Source: an uncultured Gammaproteobacteria bacterium (GTDB lineage Bacteria; Pseudomonadota; Gammaproteobacteria; Ga0077536). Taken from it: 64,000 bases of DNA. The notes under the pieces were generated by a model. It ran no database searches. It was not told the origin of the DNA and saw only the letters and a list, made by a program, of their open reading frames with translations. Of the stretch, positions 26,853 through 32,032 are shown in pieces. Positions within the stretch are counted from its first letter, which is position 1. Each line of letters begins with the position of its first letter. The translations under genes were made by a program, and so were the position numbers. Location: contig CALOBG010000020.1 in assembly GCA_942490995.1 (NCBI GenBank), positions 22,004 to 86,003 of the forward strand, read 5' to 3'.

Positions 26853-27248
26853 ATGCCCGATTTTGCCCGCGCGATTGCCGTCGACCAGGCTTATGCCCGT
26901 CACCTCGGCATTGAACTGGTGTCCGCCACCACCGATCATGCCGTGCTGCGCCTGCCGTATCGCGAGTTCCTCGGCGCCGACCGCATCAACGGCGGTGCGA
27001 TCAGTTCGCTCATCGATCTGGCCGCGACCTGTGCGATCTGGACCCACCCGGACGTTGGCGCCGGTGCCCGCGGCGCAACCGTCGGTTTCAGCATCAACTA
27101 TCTCAAGCTCAGCGTCGCCGTCGATTTGACCGCCGCGGCCCGGGTCCGGCGCCGCGGCGGCAGCATCTGCGTCAGCGACGTATCAGTAACGAACCCCGAC
27201 GGCGACGAGGTTGCGCTGGCCACGGTGACCTACAAACTCAATCCCTGA
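26853..27248 (+). CDS. PaaI-family hotdog-fold thioesterase
   Basis: 131-aa protein with hotdog thioesterase pattern (GGAISSLIDLA...GFSINYL). Confidence 0.7.
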   Translation: MPDFARAIAVDQAYARHLGIELVSATTDHAVLRLPYREFLGADRINGGAISSLIDLAATCAIWTHPDVGAGARGATVGFSINYLKLSVAVDLTAAARVRRRGGSICVSDVSVTNPDGDEVALATVTYKLNP

Positions 27249-27301
27249 CCAGCCCATCGCGTCGGGCCGGCATGCCATTTCAACACTCAAGGACATTCAC
27301 T

Positions 27302-28105
27302 ATGCGCTACCTCACCCTGCTCCTCCTGCTGTCGGGCCTGACGCCGGCAAGTACCCTGGCGGCAGACGCCGCCCTCATCGCAGCGGCCAACGGCAAGCAT
27401 CGATCGGCGGCCAATATTGCGCGCAACGACGCGCGCCACCCCGTGGAGACGCTGGAATTTTTCGGCATCCAGCCAACCATGACCGTGGTCGAGATCTGGC
27501 CGGGCGGCGGTGGCTGGTACACCGAGATCCTGGCGCCATACCTGCGCGAGGACGGGCTGTTATACGCGGCCAATTACGACGGCAGCACCGGGGTCAGCTA
27601 CTTCGAAAAAAACGCCCAGGCATTCGTCGACAAACTCGCTGCCAATCCCGACGTCTACGACAAGGTCAAGGTCGGCGCGCTGATGCCGCCGGCCAGCCTC
27701 AGTGCGGCGCCGGCCGGCAGTGCGGACCTGGTCGTGACGTTCCGCAACCTGCATAACTGGGTGCGTGACGGGCGCGCCGAAGCGATGTTCGCGGCGGCCT
27801 ACGCGGCACTCAAACCGGGCGGTATCCTGGGGCTCGTCGCGCATCGCGGCAGTGCTGAGATGGTCGGCCCCGAGGCTGCCAAAAGCGGTTACCTGGCCGA
27901 AAGCGAGGCGCTGCGCCTGGCCGCCGGCGCCGGCTTTGAATTCGTCGCAAAAAGCGAGATCAACGCCAACCCCAAAGACACGCGCGACCACCCGCAAGGC
28001 GTGTGGACGCTGCCGCCGAGTTTTCGTGCCGGCGAGGTCGATCGCGACAAGTATGCCGCGATCGGCGAAAGCGACCGCATGACGATGAAGTTTGTGAAAC
28101 CGTAG
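27302..28105 (+). CDS. Secreted class I methyltransferase-like protein
   Basis: Signal peptide MRYLTLLLLLSGLTPASTLAA. Motifs EIWPGGGGWYTEIL and LKPGGILGL. Its stop lies 22 bp before the IS1-like insertion. Confidence 0.55.
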   Translation: MRYLTLLLLLSGLTPASTLAADAALIAAANGKHRSAANIARNDARHPVETLEFFGIQPTMTVVEIWPGGGGWYTEILAPYLREDGLLYAANYDGSTGVSYFEKNAQAFVDKLAANPDVYDKVKVGALMPPASLSAAPAGSADLVVTFRNLHNWVRDGRAEAMFAAAYAALKPGGILGLVAHRGSAEMVGPEAAKSGYLAESEALRLAAGAGFEFVAKSEINANPKDTRDHPQGVWTLPPSFRAGEVDRDKYAAIGESDRMTMKFVKP

Positions 28106-28144
28106 ACGCTCGGCGCGCCGGCCGCGCTAGATTTTGGTAGTGCC

Positions 28145-29062
28145 TCACTTTGAAATTTCGCGCTTCTTGTACGGTCCGCGCTTCTTCGGAGCCGGGGCCA
28201 GCGAGTCCATGAAGTCGATAATGTCTGCCCACTCCCAAACATTATCAGTCAGGCCCGCTTCCTGTGCTGGAGTAACTTTCAGCGTTTTGTGAATGCGGAG
28301 CCAGTTATAGAACACGGTGTAGATCGCGACCATATGGCAGTGGTTCGCGAACTTCTTGCTGAACGCATCGGTTCGCCGAGGATACCTCCGCATGTGCATC
28401 CGTATGCTGAGGTTTGCCCGTTCTACGTGGGATGTGGACACTTTCGACGGATTCGGCTTTCCCTGGACTATCGGCATGTGCGCCGCGGTGCATTCCGCCG
28501 GCGAATAACGGCGCTCGGGTGCGCCTTCCATAGACGCGCTGTAATGCTTGATTAGTCGGGCGAAATCCACGTCCGGGCCGAAGCTATCTTCCACGACTTC
28601 AACGTAGACGCTATGACCGTCAGCGGTGAGCTGGAAGCGGCCTTCGATTCGGTTAGCCAGATCGGACATGAATGCAAGGGCGTATTCCGAGTCGCGCTTA
28701 CCGACGAGGTACGAAATTAAAAGCTTGGAGTCGCTATCTAGCGCGGTCCACGTCCAAGTGTCGCCAGCACCATCTGGAGCGGCCGCAGCAGTAGAGCCGT
28801 TCCACTGCTTGGCATAGGTGAACGACCAGATTTCATCGGCTTGGACATTTTGAGGGGTAACGCCCCGAACCGTCTTGTCGTGGAAGATAGCGCAAGCTTC
28901 GCCCGCTTCGACCAATAGTTTCGCCACGGTATTCTGTGAAACGTCTGTCAGGCCAGCGGCGGCGCGCATGCTCATGCCCTCGCATAACATCGCAAGGATC
29001 TGCGCGCGTTGCTTGGTGTCCAATTTATTCATACTGAACATTATACTTGAGCGCTCTTGCAT
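28145..29062 (-). CDS. IS1-family transposase (single ORF, HTH + DDE)
   Basis: N-terminal HTH. DDE region resembles IS1 InsB (DEIW...TADG...ERANLSIRMHMRRYPRRTDAFSKKFANH versus IS1 [28 protein letters not shown]). The last four codons lie inside the terminal IR, as in IS1. Confidence 0.8.
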   Translation of the reverse strand: MQERSSIMFSMNKLDTKQRAQILAMLCEGMSMRAAAGLTDVSQNTVAKLLVEAGEACAIFHDKTVRGVTPQNVQADEIWSFTYAKQWNGSTAAAAPDGAGDTWTWTALDSDSKLLISYLVGKRDSEYALAFMSDLANRIEGRFQLTADGHSVYVEVVEDSFGPDVDFARLIKHYSASMEGAPERRYSPAECTAAHMPIVQGKPNPSKVSTSHVERANLSIRMHMRRYPRRTDAFSKKFANHCHMVAIYTVFYNWLRIHKTLKVTPAQEAGLTDNVWEWADIIDFMDSLAPAPKKRGPYKKREISK

Positions 29063-29151
29063 CTAAAGCATTTTGTTACTGTTGGTCGGCGCGATAATCT
29101 CTCACAAATTCGTGAACAGCTCGGTTGCAAATAATGCGGATCTTGACTTAA

Positions 29152-29682
29152 ATGTCAATAATAGAGTTATGCAACTACTGGAGTGCTCAAGGCGAGTTAC
29201 ACAACTACGTACCTCAGCTATCGCATGAATCGCGTAGTCGTAAATTGTATGTTTCACAATCAGTATCGGAATTGCTAAACGGAAACGAGACCACTCTAGA
29301 ACTACGTGGCGCTAGACTTCAGGCTGACCTTGATTTCTATGTTTCCGGGGGGCTTTTGCAGATGTGCCTAACTCCGCATAAAGCACAGGCTGCGTATTTA
29401 GGTCTCTTGGCACCGGTCGATAAGGGAATATGGGACATCCGAAGCAGAGACCCAAAGCCGGGACTCCGTGTCTTCGGGGGTTTTGCGGAGCCGGATACCT
29501 TCATTGCCTTAGTGTGGCGACAGCGGGACAAAATGGGCGACAAGAACGATCCGGAGTGGGTCAATGCAATTAATGAATGCGAAACGAAATGGAAACATTT
29601 TTTCCATTCATATCGTCCAGTAACTGGAGATCGGATAAGTGACTACATCACAGCTAACGCCATTGGAAGCGGAGATCCTTGA
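29152..29682 (+). CDS. Hypothetical protein (passenger ORF A, candidate toxin-like partner)
   Basis: 176-aa ORF with low GC. Overlaps the start of the downstream HTH gene. No recognisable domain. Confidence 0.5.
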   Translation: MSIIELCNYWSAQGELHNYVPQLSHESRSRKLYVSQSVSELLNGNETTLELRGARLQADLDFYVSGGLLQMCLTPHKAQAAYLGLLAPVDKGIWDIRSRDPKPGLRVFGGFAEPDTFIALVWRQRDKMGDKNDPEWVNAINECETKWKHFFHSYRPVTGDRISDYITANAIGSGDP

Positions 29683-30079
29683 AAGTAAAGAGTTATCGCC
29701 GCGAGCTATAACATATTTTCAAGAGCGCCTTCGAAATCGACTCCACGAAACGGTACTTAAAGAGTACCTGCGTCAACACGATCTTAACGGAACGCGCAAA
29801 TCGCAGATCGCCTTGCGGCTAGGGAAAGACCCCGCCCAAATTACAAGATGGCTGGGTGCCCCCGGCAATTGGACAATTGACACGATCAGCGATCTATTAA
29901 TTGCCATGGGCAGCGAGCTTTCACTTGGAGTCAGACAAGTGGCAAGCCAGGCCGCTCAAGCAAGCGATTTAGATAACATCGTTAACTTCACAGGCGAGTA
30001 CAAAATTAGCGCTGGAACTACTGCAAGAGCGTCCACCGAGAACAATCCACAAAACGACTTGTATATCTCTATTGGGTAG
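29639..30079 (+). CDS. XRE-family helix-turn-helix protein (passenger ORF B, candidate antitoxin/regulator)
   Basis: HTH_XRE-like segment TRKSQIALRLGKDPAQITRWLG...ISDLLIAMGSEL. GTG start at 29639 overlaps ORF A by 44 nt; the true start may be further downstream. Confidence 0.55.
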   Translation: MTTSQLTPLEAEILESKELSPRAITYFQERLRNRLHETVLKEYLRQHDLNGTRKSQIALRLGKDPAQITRWLGAPGNWTIDTISDLLIAMGSELSLGVRQVASQAAQASDLDNIVNFTGEYKISAGTTARASTENNPQNDLYISIG

Positions 30080-30084
30080 CAGAA

Positions 30085-30546
30085 GTGGATCACGTAACTT
30101 CAGCTATCTGCTATAAAGCGCTAGTCGATCAGCAAACCAATTTACTCACGCTAGTTGACCTTAGCGACGTTGCAATCTTTGAAGAAACGAAAGAAGCAAT
30201 AGAGCAAAAACTTAGCGAAGGCGGCGGGCAGTTTATATTCGGCCCCGTACACTATTCGTTGGTTAGTTTATGGTATCGAACTAATACGGACGTTCCGGAA
30301 TCAGGTTATTTCAGAATCACGCTTATAGCCCCGGACGGCAAAAAAGTATTGATTGCAGATGCTCAAGAAATCAGCTTGGAAAACGATATAAGCGCGCGGA
30401 CTATTGCTGTCATGAAGGCATTTCCGTTTAGGGGGTTAGGACGTTATACGTTCGCTATACACAAGCGGGAGAACACCAATGGCCGGTGGACGCTCTGTAC
30501 AAAATTGCCGCTAATTATTCGATGCCGAGACCCAATTAATCCTTAG
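30085..30546 (+). CDS. Hypothetical protein (passenger ORF C)
   Basis: 153-aa ORF starting 6 bp after ORF B, with GTG start. Predicted beta-rich. No recognisable domain. Confidence 0.45.
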   Translation: MDHVTSAICYKALVDQQTNLLTLVDLSDVAIFEETKEAIEQKLSEGGGQFIFGPVHYSLVSLWYRTNTDVPESGYFRITLIAPDGKKVLIADAQEISLENDISARTIAVMKAFPFRGLGRYTFAIHKRENTNGRWTLCTKLPLIIRCRDPINP

Positions 30547-30793
30547 AGCTAAATTTCTTCCATCGAGCTTTCGCTGCCTTCTTGGCGATTTCGTGGCGCC
30601 GCTCGGCCGACAATTGCTTCGACCTGGCTACACCGCCCTTCGTTCCGCCCTTCCGGCCTAGCTCAACGGCCGCAGGATTTTTTCCTTCGTCTAGATTTTC
30701 GTCCTCAGCCTCGCCCGTAGCTATTTCCATGACACGCACGGCATTCCCGATAACGTCCGCCGGGCGCTTTGATTTCCTGAGTTTGTCAGTCAT
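30536..30793 (-). CDS. Small basic hypothetical protein adjacent to the distal IR
   Basis: 85-aa Lys/Arg/Gly-rich protein (GRKGGTKGGVARSKQLSAERRHEIAKKAAKARW). Occupies the position that insA holds in IS1 but has no Cys zinc finger. Confidence 0.4.
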   Translation of the reverse strand: MTDKLRKSKRPADVIGNAVRVMEIATGEAEDENLDEGKNPAAVELGRKGGTKGGVARSKQLSAERRHEIAKKAAKARWKKFSSKD

Positions 30794-30852
30794 GGGCTTA
30801 TTATAGCGCCATGGGTCGATTTCTCTTTTTTGATTTCAAACTGAGGCACTAC

Positions 30853-31185
30853 CTAGATTTTTATCGGTTTGAAACGTTCGAAACCCGCGCCGTCGGAGTT
30901 GCGCGCGCCGCGTTGCGCGGGTGATTGTTTGCCGAGCGTTTTCCAGTCACTTTTACCGAACAGGGCGGCGTCATAAGCGCGGCGCTTGCGCGTATCGCTC
31001 AATACCGCAAACGCCTGGTTGATCACCGCGGCGTTCCATTCGTCACCGCCGAGATCGGGATGGGCCTTGAGTTTCTGCATCAGGGTGCGGTAGCTGGCTC
31101 GCACGATTTCCAGCGGCGCGTCCGGCTGCACGTAGAGTACGCGGTAGTAATTTCGCTGGTTCGGCTTGGATTTCCCGTCGGCCAC
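30853..31185 (-). CDS. J-domain protein (DnaJ-like co-chaperone, J domain only)
   Basis: J domain with HPD motif (YYRVLYVQPDA...KAHPDLGG...AYD). GTG start at 31185 with AGGA upstream; the ORF opens at 31212. Its TAG stop is formed at the element boundary. Confidence 0.7.
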   Translation of the reverse strand: MADGKSKPNQRNYYRVLYVQPDAPLEIVRASYRTLMQKLKAHPDLGGDEWNAAVINQAFAVLSDTRKRRAYDAALFGKSDWKTLGKQSPAQRGARNSDGAGFERFKPIKI

Positions 31186-31255
31186 AGTCCTGCATCCGCG
31201 CTCTCGACTCACTCCAGATTAGCGGCGCCGTGGCGCGTTCCTTAACCTGTGCGGA

Positions 31256-32032
31256 TCAATGCAGCTTGCCCGGCGCGTCGGCGATGGCCATGCGCCTGCG
31301 CGCGAGTTCCGCTTTCAGGGCCGCATTCGGCGCCAGTTCAAGGGCGCGGTCGAGTTCGTGCCTGGCCATGGCCGGGACCCCGGCAGCGAGCCATAAATCG
31401 ACGCGGTCGAGGTGGAACGGAAACGGGTCGGGCGCGATCAGGATCTGGTAGCCGGAATAGTCGAGGGCCAGTGCATGCTCGCCGCGCTGCAGCGCCAGCA
31501 CGCGCAGATTGTTCAACATGCGCAGCACGATATCGCGTGCCGAGGCGGGCGCAAAAGCCTGCTCGGCGCTGAGCCCAAGGGCGCTCAGCCAGGCCTGCCG
31601 CTGCGCGTCACTGACGACCGCCATCTGGAACGGATCGACCAGCTCCGCGCCGACCGAAACCAGGAAATGCTGGGGAAAATTGACCCCATGGCCATCGATG
31701 CCGAGCACCTCCGCAACGCCCAGCACGACCAGCGCGAGGCTGATCGGGATCCCGCGACGCTTGCGCAGAACGTACTCCAGCGAGCTGTTATCGCGGCTGT
31801 AATAGGCCTCGGCGCCGGCGAAACCCGTTTCATGCAGAAACGCGACCAGGGCCGCACCATCGTTGCATGGCCCGGCGGCGTCGGCCAGGCGGCGCAGTTC
31901 GCCGCGTACCCAGGCGCTATCGGTGGCCGGGTCTATGATCCGCGCGACCAGCAGGCCGCCGTCAACCGGGGTCGAGTGGCCGGCGGCAAAGTCGCGGAAT
32001 GCCGCGGCGAGGGGCAAGTCATCGTTGGTCAC
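31256..32032 (-). CDS. Transglutaminase-like/TPR protein of the SirB1 (YchA, UPF0162) family
   Basis: Core IPISLALVVLGVAEVLGIDGHGVNFPQHFLV is typical of the SirB1 family. GTG start with GGAG 8 nt upstream. Confidence 0.6.
   Translation of the reverse strand: MTNDDLPLAAAFRDFAAGHSTPVDGGLLVARIIDPATDSAWVRGELRRLADAAGPCNDGAALVAFLHETGFAGAEAYYSRDNSSLEYVLRKRRGIPISLALVVLGVAEVLGIDGHGVNFPQHFLVSVGAELVDPFQMAVVSDAQRQAWLSALGLSAEQAFAPASARDIVLRMLNNLRVLALQRGEHALALDYSGYQILIAPDPFPFHLDRVDLWLAAGVPAMARHELDRALELAPNAALKAELARRRMAIADAPGKLH

Follow-up and report, generated by a model that had tools for sequence, protein, structure and literature searches.

Closest Described Systems and the Locus under Study

Type II toxin-antitoxin (TA) systems of the Gp49/HigB-2 type, such as HigBA of Streptococcus pneumoniae and HigBA2 of Vibrio cholerae, combine a PF05973 toxin with an antitoxin carrying a helix-turn-helix (HTH) domain of the XRE/HTH_37 type. 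In the Mycobacterium tuberculosis toxin-antitoxin-chaperone (TAC) system (HigB1-HigA1-SecB-like protein, Rv1955–Rv1957), toxin and HTH antitoxin are accompanied by a third protein. Moreover, gene pairs for Gp49-type toxins and HTH antitoxins reside within Tn3-family transposons, inside their transposition modules, where they may stabilize the replicon carrying them or exert a ‘take me or die’ effect (PMC7157771). Insertion sequences (IS) carrying passenger genes fall under the concept of the transporter IS (tIS), which is cited in PMC7986276. In this study, a stretch of 64,000 nucleotides from an uncultured gammaproteobacterium (assembly GCA_942490995.1, contig CALOBG010000020.1, positions 22,004–86,003), referred to as the window, was analyzed with respect to three small co-directional genes, designated open reading frames (ORFs) A, B and C, which are located within a 2,718-bp IS1-family element. 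On balance, ORFs A–C are considered to represent a tripartite HigBA-like type II TA module serving as addiction and/or abortive-infection cargo of an IS1-family tIS. The view that A and B constitute a TA pair is held with more confidence than this overall assignment, and any specific role of C with much less. An earlier note on this DNA had proposed a TA or defense-like module; its TA reading as a whole gained support from the fold of A, the HTH partner, the third gene and the localization on a transposon, toxicity of A being a prediction.

Among the described systems, HigBA of the Gp49/HigB-2 type is one of the closest. In both cases, the gene of the toxin, here a predicted one, is located upstream of an XRE-HTH gene and overlaps it. 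Furthermore, ORF A is predicted to share the RelE/ParE fold, the long C-terminal helix and the basic residues at strands b2 and b3 and past b4. However, ORF A is approximately 60–70 aa longer than classical HigB/RelE proteins and has an N-terminal extension and an insert, it stays under all Pfam thresholds for families of the BECR fold, and a conserved third gene follows the pair. With the TAC system, the locus shares the succession of toxin, HTH antitoxin and third protein as well as a C-terminal extension of the antitoxin, whereas the third protein is a predicted immunoglobulin-like (Ig-like) beta-sandwich of the DUF6941 family instead of a SecB-like chaperone. Like the Tn3-embedded pairs, a predicted Gp49-type toxin gene and an HTH antitoxin gene reside inside a transposon, adjoining and divergent from a transposition gene; unlike them, the carrier is a 2.7-kb IS1-family tIS without resolvase or res site, three genes are present and the cargo slot is swappable. 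The combination of an IS1-type DDE transposase with passenger genes located within inverted repeats (IRs) resembles tIS of the IS1 and IS1595 families.

Conservation and Linkage of ORFs A, B and C

Loci were compiled from one genome per species (16, mostly alphaproteobacterial metagenome-assembled genomes (MAGs)), metagenomes (56), a viral collection (1), plasmids and exact-protein look-ups, and were scored with profiles for A, B, C, the transposase, ORF D (a further small gene of the element) and an alternative third gene. Collapsing the A proteins at 95% identity resulted in 68 groups. The order A-B(-C) was found again in 68 non-redundant loci at approximately 30–45% protein identity. Since this order recurs, ORFs A–C are not chance ORFs; they are real genes forming a conserved module. 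Moreover, N-termini kept in the homologues (A, MSI...; B, MTTSQ.T...; C, ME(H/N)(V/I)WSVLC...) support the annotated starts.

The lengths of 176, 146 and 153 aa and the 44-nt overlap of A and B given in the earlier note agree with the sequence, as does the described reading direction from the transposase side toward the distal IR and away from the minus-strand transposase gene. The gap between B and C, previously stated as 6 bp, comprises 5 nt (CAGAA). Concerning composition, GC contents of 47.8% (A), 48.8% (B) and 45.2% (C) are far below those of the 20-kb flanks (63.8% and 64.7%); the trio was therefore rightly described as foreign, although the range of 42–45% assumed for it was somewhat too low.

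A genomic-neighborhood search, as previously suggested, never encountered A without an HTH partner: B was located directly after A in all 60 of the 60 non-redundant loci with an intact A. Of five automated ‘misses’ of B, three concerned A fragments of 57 aa, and the other two were artefacts of filters or thresholds. The third position was occupied by a DUF6941-like gene in 41 of the 51 assessable loci and by an alternative family in seven, and was empty or otherwise filled in three. A third gene, which had been regarded as a possible third component, is thus nearly always present. Proteins of the alternative family comprise approximately 160–220 aa (MELVEILFSQA...GVTFLHGF...), are unrelated to DUF6941 and lack Pfam or PADLOC matches. 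Since this family holds the third position in seven non-redundant loci, the position is exchangeable. Loci L074/75 and L078 feature A-B without a third gene. In many relatives, the stop codon of B overlaps the start codon of C.

Linkage was also recovered in the opposite direction. All seven loci reached from DUF6941 proteins encode a protein of approximately 150–195 aa, followed by an HTH protein and then DUF6941. As this layout was returned from all seven starts, DUF6941 is essentially a dedicated partner of the A-B pair. In one of these loci (L033), the first gene product spans the whole Gp49 profile, albeit weakly (E 0.064), and its partner matches HTH_37 and HTH_3. In summary of the gene organization, the type II TA traits observed are small, adjacent, co-directional and overlapping genes, their consistent co-occurrence and a DNA-binding domain in the partner. 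The proposed HigBA/MqsRA-like layout holds for HigBA in terms of gene order, overlap and the HigB/Gp49 fold, whereas MqsRA is the wrong analogue. Neither A nor C was placed in ordinary metabolic or structural families.

Predicted Toxin Fold of ORF A

An AlphaFold2 model of ORF A was computed from a 10-sequence alignment (pLDDT 80, pTM 0.80) and compared with PDB structures using Foldseek, an approach already recommended in the earlier note. The first matches were HigB2 of V. cholerae and HigB of S. pneumoniae (probability 0.96–0.98), followed by RelE, YoeB, YafQ, HigB2 and ParE; the top 20 matches are all toxins belonging to the RelE/ParE superfamily. The model features a RelE-type fold (b1-a1-a2-b2-b3-b4) and a long C-terminal helix (residues 134–150), the latter being typical of Gp49-like toxins (PMC9098466). 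Based on the model, ORF A most likely adopts a Gp49/HigB-type RelE/ParE (BECR) fold, and its designation as a candidate toxin is retained as that of a predicted toxin.

Invariant or nearly invariant residues of ORF A are located where b2 ends (D95/R97), where b3 begins (R106) and just past b4 (R125). For HigB1, the residues E66/R68, R77 and K95 were proposed to be catalytic and were equated with K54, R61 and R81 of RelE (PMC9098466). The residue spacing of 2, 9 and 19 in ORF A is close to that of 2, 9 and 18 in HigB1, residues being matched by spacing and strand position and not by superposition. The conserved residues of ORF A would accommodate a RelE-type active site.

When 1.84 billion cluster representatives were searched exhaustively with a profile, 1,076 of them (E ≤ 1e-3) were assigned to the ORF A family, 190 of these with E ≤ 1e-30; most are 170–190 aa in length. 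Previously, a word-indexed homologue search had yielded ten relatives of ORF A and none of ORF C, underestimating both; ORF A only looked rare due to these ten hits, and the exhaustive search corrected this impression. In L033 and L034, whose first genes are divergent, the core motif of the A family could also be aligned weakly with these genes (E 0.034 and 4.9e-4), a result that was not relied on.

ORF B Encodes a Putative XRE-Type Antitoxin

Alignment of the ORF B family revealed a conserved N-terminal segment, an HTH at approximately residues 50–95 and a C-terminal tail that is variable and spans some 50 aa. The HTH features the motif GLT.A.LARRIGK.P..I.R.LGAPGNWTLDT.SDLL, and the family profile matched the HipB antitoxin (E 3.5e-4), HicB and XRE structures. 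HTH_3 was recognized in seven of 19 homologues; ORF B of the window itself had no significant Pfam match, its HTH being under the thresholds. Hence, the XRE-type HTH described as clear is visible at the family level and escapes Pfam in the window's own protein. Comparison with PADLOC provided weak, HTH-level matches to PDC-M64C (E 7e-7) and PDC-M64B. As judged from these sequence comparisons, ORF B belongs to the XRE-HTH proteins, the HTH domains of antitoxins being its closest counterparts. This relationship and its invariant position after A are in line with the proposed function as antitoxin or regulator, and ORF B is predicted to be the antitoxin.

ORF C Represents a Divergent DUF6941 Protein

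ORF C matched Pfam DUF6941 (PF22091) with an E-value of 4.6e-4 and 21 bits, under the cut-off of 27. It clusters with the third genes of loci L008 and L012 (33–35% identity), and hhalign comparison of these three sequences with the DUF6941 alignment resulted in an E-value of 3e-6 at a probability of 74–88%. Relatives of ORF C were found by an alignment query after the word-indexed search had given none. Moreover, ORF C occupies the same third place after A-B as bona fide DUF6941 genes. The structure of a relative, the canonical DUF6941 protein P0162 from a sister element (locus L009), was predicted as an all-beta, Ig-like sandwich (pLDDT 94.6). ORF C is accordingly classified, on profile and model evidence, as a divergent member of what appears to be a family of small cytoplasmic Ig-like beta-sandwich proteins. 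It diverges fastest of the three proteins, showing 12–21% identity where A keeps 34–48%. No mention of DUF6941 was found among the papers of the literature library searched.

The order of toxin, antitoxin and third gene is identical to that of the TAC system, and C could accordingly be a chaperone for B, which would protect it via a C-terminal addiction segment against aggregation or proteolysis. Such a function would suit the variable tail of about 50 aa past the HTH of B, the overlap of B stop and C start codons in many loci and the subgroup comprising the window, L008 and L012, which pairs a distinct B tail with a distinct C subtype. However, the latter co-variation is confounded by phylogeny, and the tail motif RN..P.W is common to B proteins followed by the alternative third gene and to many DUF6941-paired B proteins. 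In addition, A-B occurs without a third gene in the loci named above, and the third protein is not SecB-like, structural matches of the beta-sandwich being generic (Z ≤ 9.3). A TAC-type system is therefore considered unlikely. The candidate assignment of C as a SecB-like chaperone was rejected in view of the Ig-like sandwich fold of the family.

The IS1-Family Carrier Element and Its Mobility

The element encloses the transposase gene, ORFs A–C and ORF D, and is bounded by 21-bp IRs agreeing at 20 of 21 positions and by a perfect 8-bp target-site duplication (Table 1). The trio is thus transposon cargo, as had been claimed. According to ISfinder descriptions, IS1-family elements are characterized by GGnnnTG ends and duplications of 8–9 bp; the present element agrees with these descriptions in its ends and in its 8-bp duplication. 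The transposase matched Pfam DDE_Tnp_IS1 (27.6 bits vs. a cut-off of 24.1) and HTH_23; its NCBIfam match to transpos_IS1 (E 4e-18, score 66) remained under the equivalog cut-off of 100. Plasmid-encoded relatives of the transposase with 53–55% identity carry the RefSeq label ‘IS1 family transposase’, and nucleotide comparison of the whole element with plasmids matched the transposase gene alone.

ORF D and ORF C are convergent and have 11 nt in common at the 3' end of C. The only library match of ORF D was phrog_2384 (E 2.8e-7), and its C-terminus contains the motif ...GRKGG.KGG.ARS..LS.E.R.EIAKKAAKARW. Homologues of ORF D occupy the same IR-proximal end of related IS1-family elements irrespective of their cargo, and from these comparisons ORF D appears to belong to the backbone of the IS lineage. 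Some homologue records are labeled ‘histone H1’ or ‘RNA-binding protein’. Neither a conserved small gene such as ORF D at the far end nor exchangeable defense or TA cargo is known to have been described for tIS of the IS1/IS1595 families. Cargo and backbone also differ in composition, with a GC of 45–49% and a GC at third codon positions (GC3) of 46–49% for ORFs A–C vs. 55% and 59–66% for transposase and ORF D; both are lower than the host level (GC 64%; GC3 72–80% in flanking genes). The difference between cargo and backbone suggests separate origins.

Related elements share the end sequence GGTAGTG-NN-TCAGTTTGAAAT at both ends, and perfect 8-bp duplications flank 17 of 18 of their IR pairs, from which it follows that the elements are mobile as a whole, with transposase, cargo and ORF D included. 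Among the 35 A loci with both flanks assessable, transposase and ORF D were both present in 16, neither in 14 and one of the two in five; the transposase was adjacent in 24 of 48 assessable A loci. IS-free settings of A-B-C comprise chromosomes, a Rhizobium tropici plasmid, an IMG/VR contig and prophage-like regions containing integrase and muramidase genes, or a terminase gene. These occurrences indicate that A-B-C is an autonomous module captured by this IS. In Rhodobiaceae MAG contigs (L030–L032), A-B-DUF6941 is located at a prophage-like edge between a muramidase/lysis block and an integrase gene; such an edge is a typical place for phage-borne defense or moron genes. A metagenomic locus (L044) contains a 2,126-bp unit of the structure IR-A-B-C-IR with a perfect 8-bp duplication (CATAAAAT) and without transposase and ORF D, presumably a non-autonomous, cargo-only derivative mobilized in trans.

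The cargo slot is situated between ORF D and the transposase gene, and sister elements with the same ends hold other cargo there. In a Hoeflea element, a complete RosmerTA pair was identified (RmrT, 1.2e-97; RmrA, 3.2e-191). The function of RosmerTA as a TA and anti-phage system has been validated by experiment (PMC10440598). Elements of Mesorhizobium loti and Methylocapsa encode an HTH-M78 protein matching PD-Lambda-2_B (2e-49 and 4e-40) and a small partner protein, and an Acidiphilium element carries a ClpP-like SDH protease as cargo. The Methylocapsa element adjoins a Shedu gene. RosmerTA and PD-Lambda-2 resemble A-B-C in being small modules built around an HTH protein and in using the same slot. 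However, they have no sequence relation to A or C, and their HTH protein is a fusion with an M78/ImmA peptidase.

Both promoters, as well as the operator of ORF B, are presumably situated in the 89-bp divergent region that separates ORF A from the transposase gene. A good sigma-70-like site within and next to this region (TTGACA, 16-nt spacer, CATTAT; minus strand) faces the transposase gene and overlaps the start codon of ORF A, which hints at overlapping divergent promoters. An Rfam scan of positions 27000–32000 gave no match. The shared promoter region raises the question whether the trio serves the IS itself, its products acting as transposition regulators or accessory factors, e.g., by repression of the transposase promoter by B. 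Integration of transposon-borne TA pairs in transposition control was considered possible by Lima-Mendez et al. (PMC7157771), and the module resides inside IRs in about half of the assessable loci (24/48 with adjacent transposase; 16/35 with transposase and ORF D). On the other hand, 14 of 35 loci possess neither transposase nor ORF D, including the prophage-like regions and the Rhizobium plasmid; sister elements transpose with wholly different cargo, as evident from their 8-bp duplications; a cargo-only derivative exists; and the GC of the cargo departs from the 55% of the IS backbone. A role in the service of the IS is hence very doubtful, and classification of A-B-C as IS-specific accessory genes was rejected, many loci being devoid of the IS.

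Proposed Mode of Action and Its Appraisal

In the favored TA interpretation, A would most likely act as a ribosome-dependent mRNase cleaving mRNA on the ribosome. Translation of B would be coupled to that of A via the 44-nt overlap, and the conserved N-terminal segment of B may bind and neutralize A. The XRE-type HTH of B is expected to repress the promoter in the 89-bp region common to the divergent transposase gene. C, predicted to be co-translated with B in most relatives by way of overlapping stop and start codons, would be a stoichiometric third subunit that binds the B/A complex, probably via the variable C-terminal tail of B, and may either stabilize neutralization or sense a trigger. 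Upon loss of the element, or upon an infection-induced stop in the supply of B, A would be freed and translation arrested. Prophage positions of the module and validated defense systems in the slots of sister elements point to an addiction and/or abortive-infection role.

Several results weigh against this interpretation. As a single sequence, ORF A had no match in Pfam, NCBIfam, PHROGs or PADLOC, and no PADLOC-DB v2 model matched ORF A or ORF C. Pfam Gp49 (PF05973) matched three of 63 A family members weakly (best E 0.026). Moreover, ORF A showed no significant match to any of the 13 Pfam BECR-fold families listed in Gerdes's 2025 survey (PMC11980606), and searching PDB sequences returned noise only, whether ORF A by itself or the A family profiles were used. 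Since no sequence-profile library places A, its assignment as toxin relies on the predicted structure; in this model, residues 71–90 are of low confidence and the underlying alignment comprises ten sequences. The correspondence of catalytic residues was set by spacing and secondary-structure position without superposition. For ORF C, the fold was taken from P0162, with which it shares approximately 15% identity; the beta-sandwich of the latter is a generic fold with no functional homologue, and the DUF6941 motif CDDxRxExNGK is not kept in the C subtype of the window. In the promoter and terminator scan, the number of sites was not above that of shuffled controls, and no operator was found.

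Alternatively, A may be a catalytically dead or non-toxic RelE-fold protein, the operon then being a transcription-factor cassette or a decayed TA remnant. In M. tuberculosis, HigB2 and HigB3 are non-toxic despite their HigB fold (PMC9098466); missing recognition as toxin by the profile libraries and the additional length of A are also compatible with this explanation. However, the motif IRSRDP...RVFG...R and the three basic residues at catalytic positions are under strong purifying conservation across more than 1,000 clusters, the overlapping HTH partner is invariant, and the module is carried by mobile elements that elsewhere hold validated TA or defense systems. A non-toxic A is accordingly judged improbable.

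Beyond the TA interpretation, it is tentatively proposed that A-B-C constitutes an undescribed three-component anti-phage system, with the IS1-family tIS lineage as its dedicated, cargo-exchanging shuttle. The fast-evolving DUF6941 beta-sandwich might then detect a cue from the phage or control the stability of the antitoxin and thereby release a Gp49-like ribosome-dependent mRNase. The tIS lineage, defined by its GGTAGTG..TCAGTTTGAAAT ends and ORF D, would swap RosmerTA, PD-Lambda-2-like and A-B-C modules and spawn cargo-only derivatives mobilized in trans.

As the toxin superfamily is already known, novelty covers the family and the three-gene architecture and not the principle. The earlier designation as a novel module stands to this extent, while the TA principle and the fold superfamily were known before. 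New are the unannotated predicted toxin family, the dedicated beta-sandwich third gene and the IS-scale carrier with swappable defense cargo. At 50% identity, the predicted RelE/HigB-fold toxin family forms over 1,000 clusters; it was missed by Pfam, NCBIfam and PADLOC. DUF6941 gains a first concrete setting as the dedicated third gene of the A-B-C module, and a small IS1-family element with exchangeable TA/defense cargo extends the ‘defense on transposons’ picture (Tn7-like, Tn3-family) to IS scale. If the TA interpretation is true, the trio represents a tractable new tripartite TA/defense system and could serve to examine whether an IS is less easily lost when it carries TA cargo. It would gain further interest as a defense system with a new sensing component, should that proposal prove true.

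Coordinates and Further Features of the Element and Its Relatives

Table 1. Positions of features of the IS1-family element in the window and of features in related loci (the latter numbered within the respective locus).
Feature	Position	Strand	Description
Window
IS1-family element	28136-30853		2,718 bp
Left target-site duplication	28128-28135		8 bp, TAGATTTT; direct reading; identical octamer at 30854-30861
Left terminal IR	28136-28156	+	21 bp, GGTAGTGCCTCACTTTGAAAT; overlaps transposase stop codon
Transposase	28145-29062	-	IS1-family DDE, 305 aa, N-terminal HTH; Pfam DDE_Tnp_IS1
Divergent intergenic region	29063-29151		89 bp, between transposase gene and ORF A
Sigma-70-like site	29131-29158	-	
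ORF A	29152-29682	+	176 aa, ATG start; predicted Gp49/HigB-like RelE-superfamily toxin with N-terminal extension
ORF B	29639-30079	+	146 aa, GTG start; XRE-type HTH protein, predicted antitoxin/autorepressor
ORF C	30085-30546	+	153 aa, GTG start; divergent DUF6941-like protein, predicted family fold Ig-like beta-sandwich
ORF D	30536-30793	-	85 aa, small basic protein; same strand as transposase gene
Right terminal IR	30833-30853	-	reverse complement = GGTAGTGCCTCAGTTTGAAAT
Right target-site duplication	30854-30861		8 bp, TAGATTTT
DnaJ-domain gene	30853-31212	-	flanks the element
Related loci
Sister elements, other cargo	L023 1588-5811; L025 1796-5165; L024 1797-4921; L005 3520-6153		perfect 8-bp duplications in 3/4, L024 without
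Alternative third gene	L014 3991-4644; L021 4889-5554; L020 4942-5430; L037 1680-2330		also in L054, L058, L064, L066
Cargo-only unit	L044 3135-5260		IR-A-B-C-IR, metagenomic
A-B-DUF6941 at prophage-like edge	L030-L032 3069-4411		Rhodobiaceae MAG contigs
Longer A-B-C elements	L016 1912-5905; L068 752-4559; L009 1076-4417; L050 1684-5151; L086 1794-2039		

The flanking DnaJ-domain gene has a stop codon (30853–30855, CTA on the plus strand) composed of one base from the right IR, its last, and the two bases with which the target duplication begins. Insertion of the IS took place exactly at the end of this gene and left its stop unaltered. An uninserted allele was not found when the empty target site was sought in metagenomes and the flanking DnaJ-domain protein was used in an exact search.

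Some A-B-C elements exceed the copy in the window by 0.6–1.3 kb (Table 1) and, given this larger size, must hold extra sequence or genes. In L086, the grouping of several IR-like copies at one end is suggestive of nested or tandem insertions.

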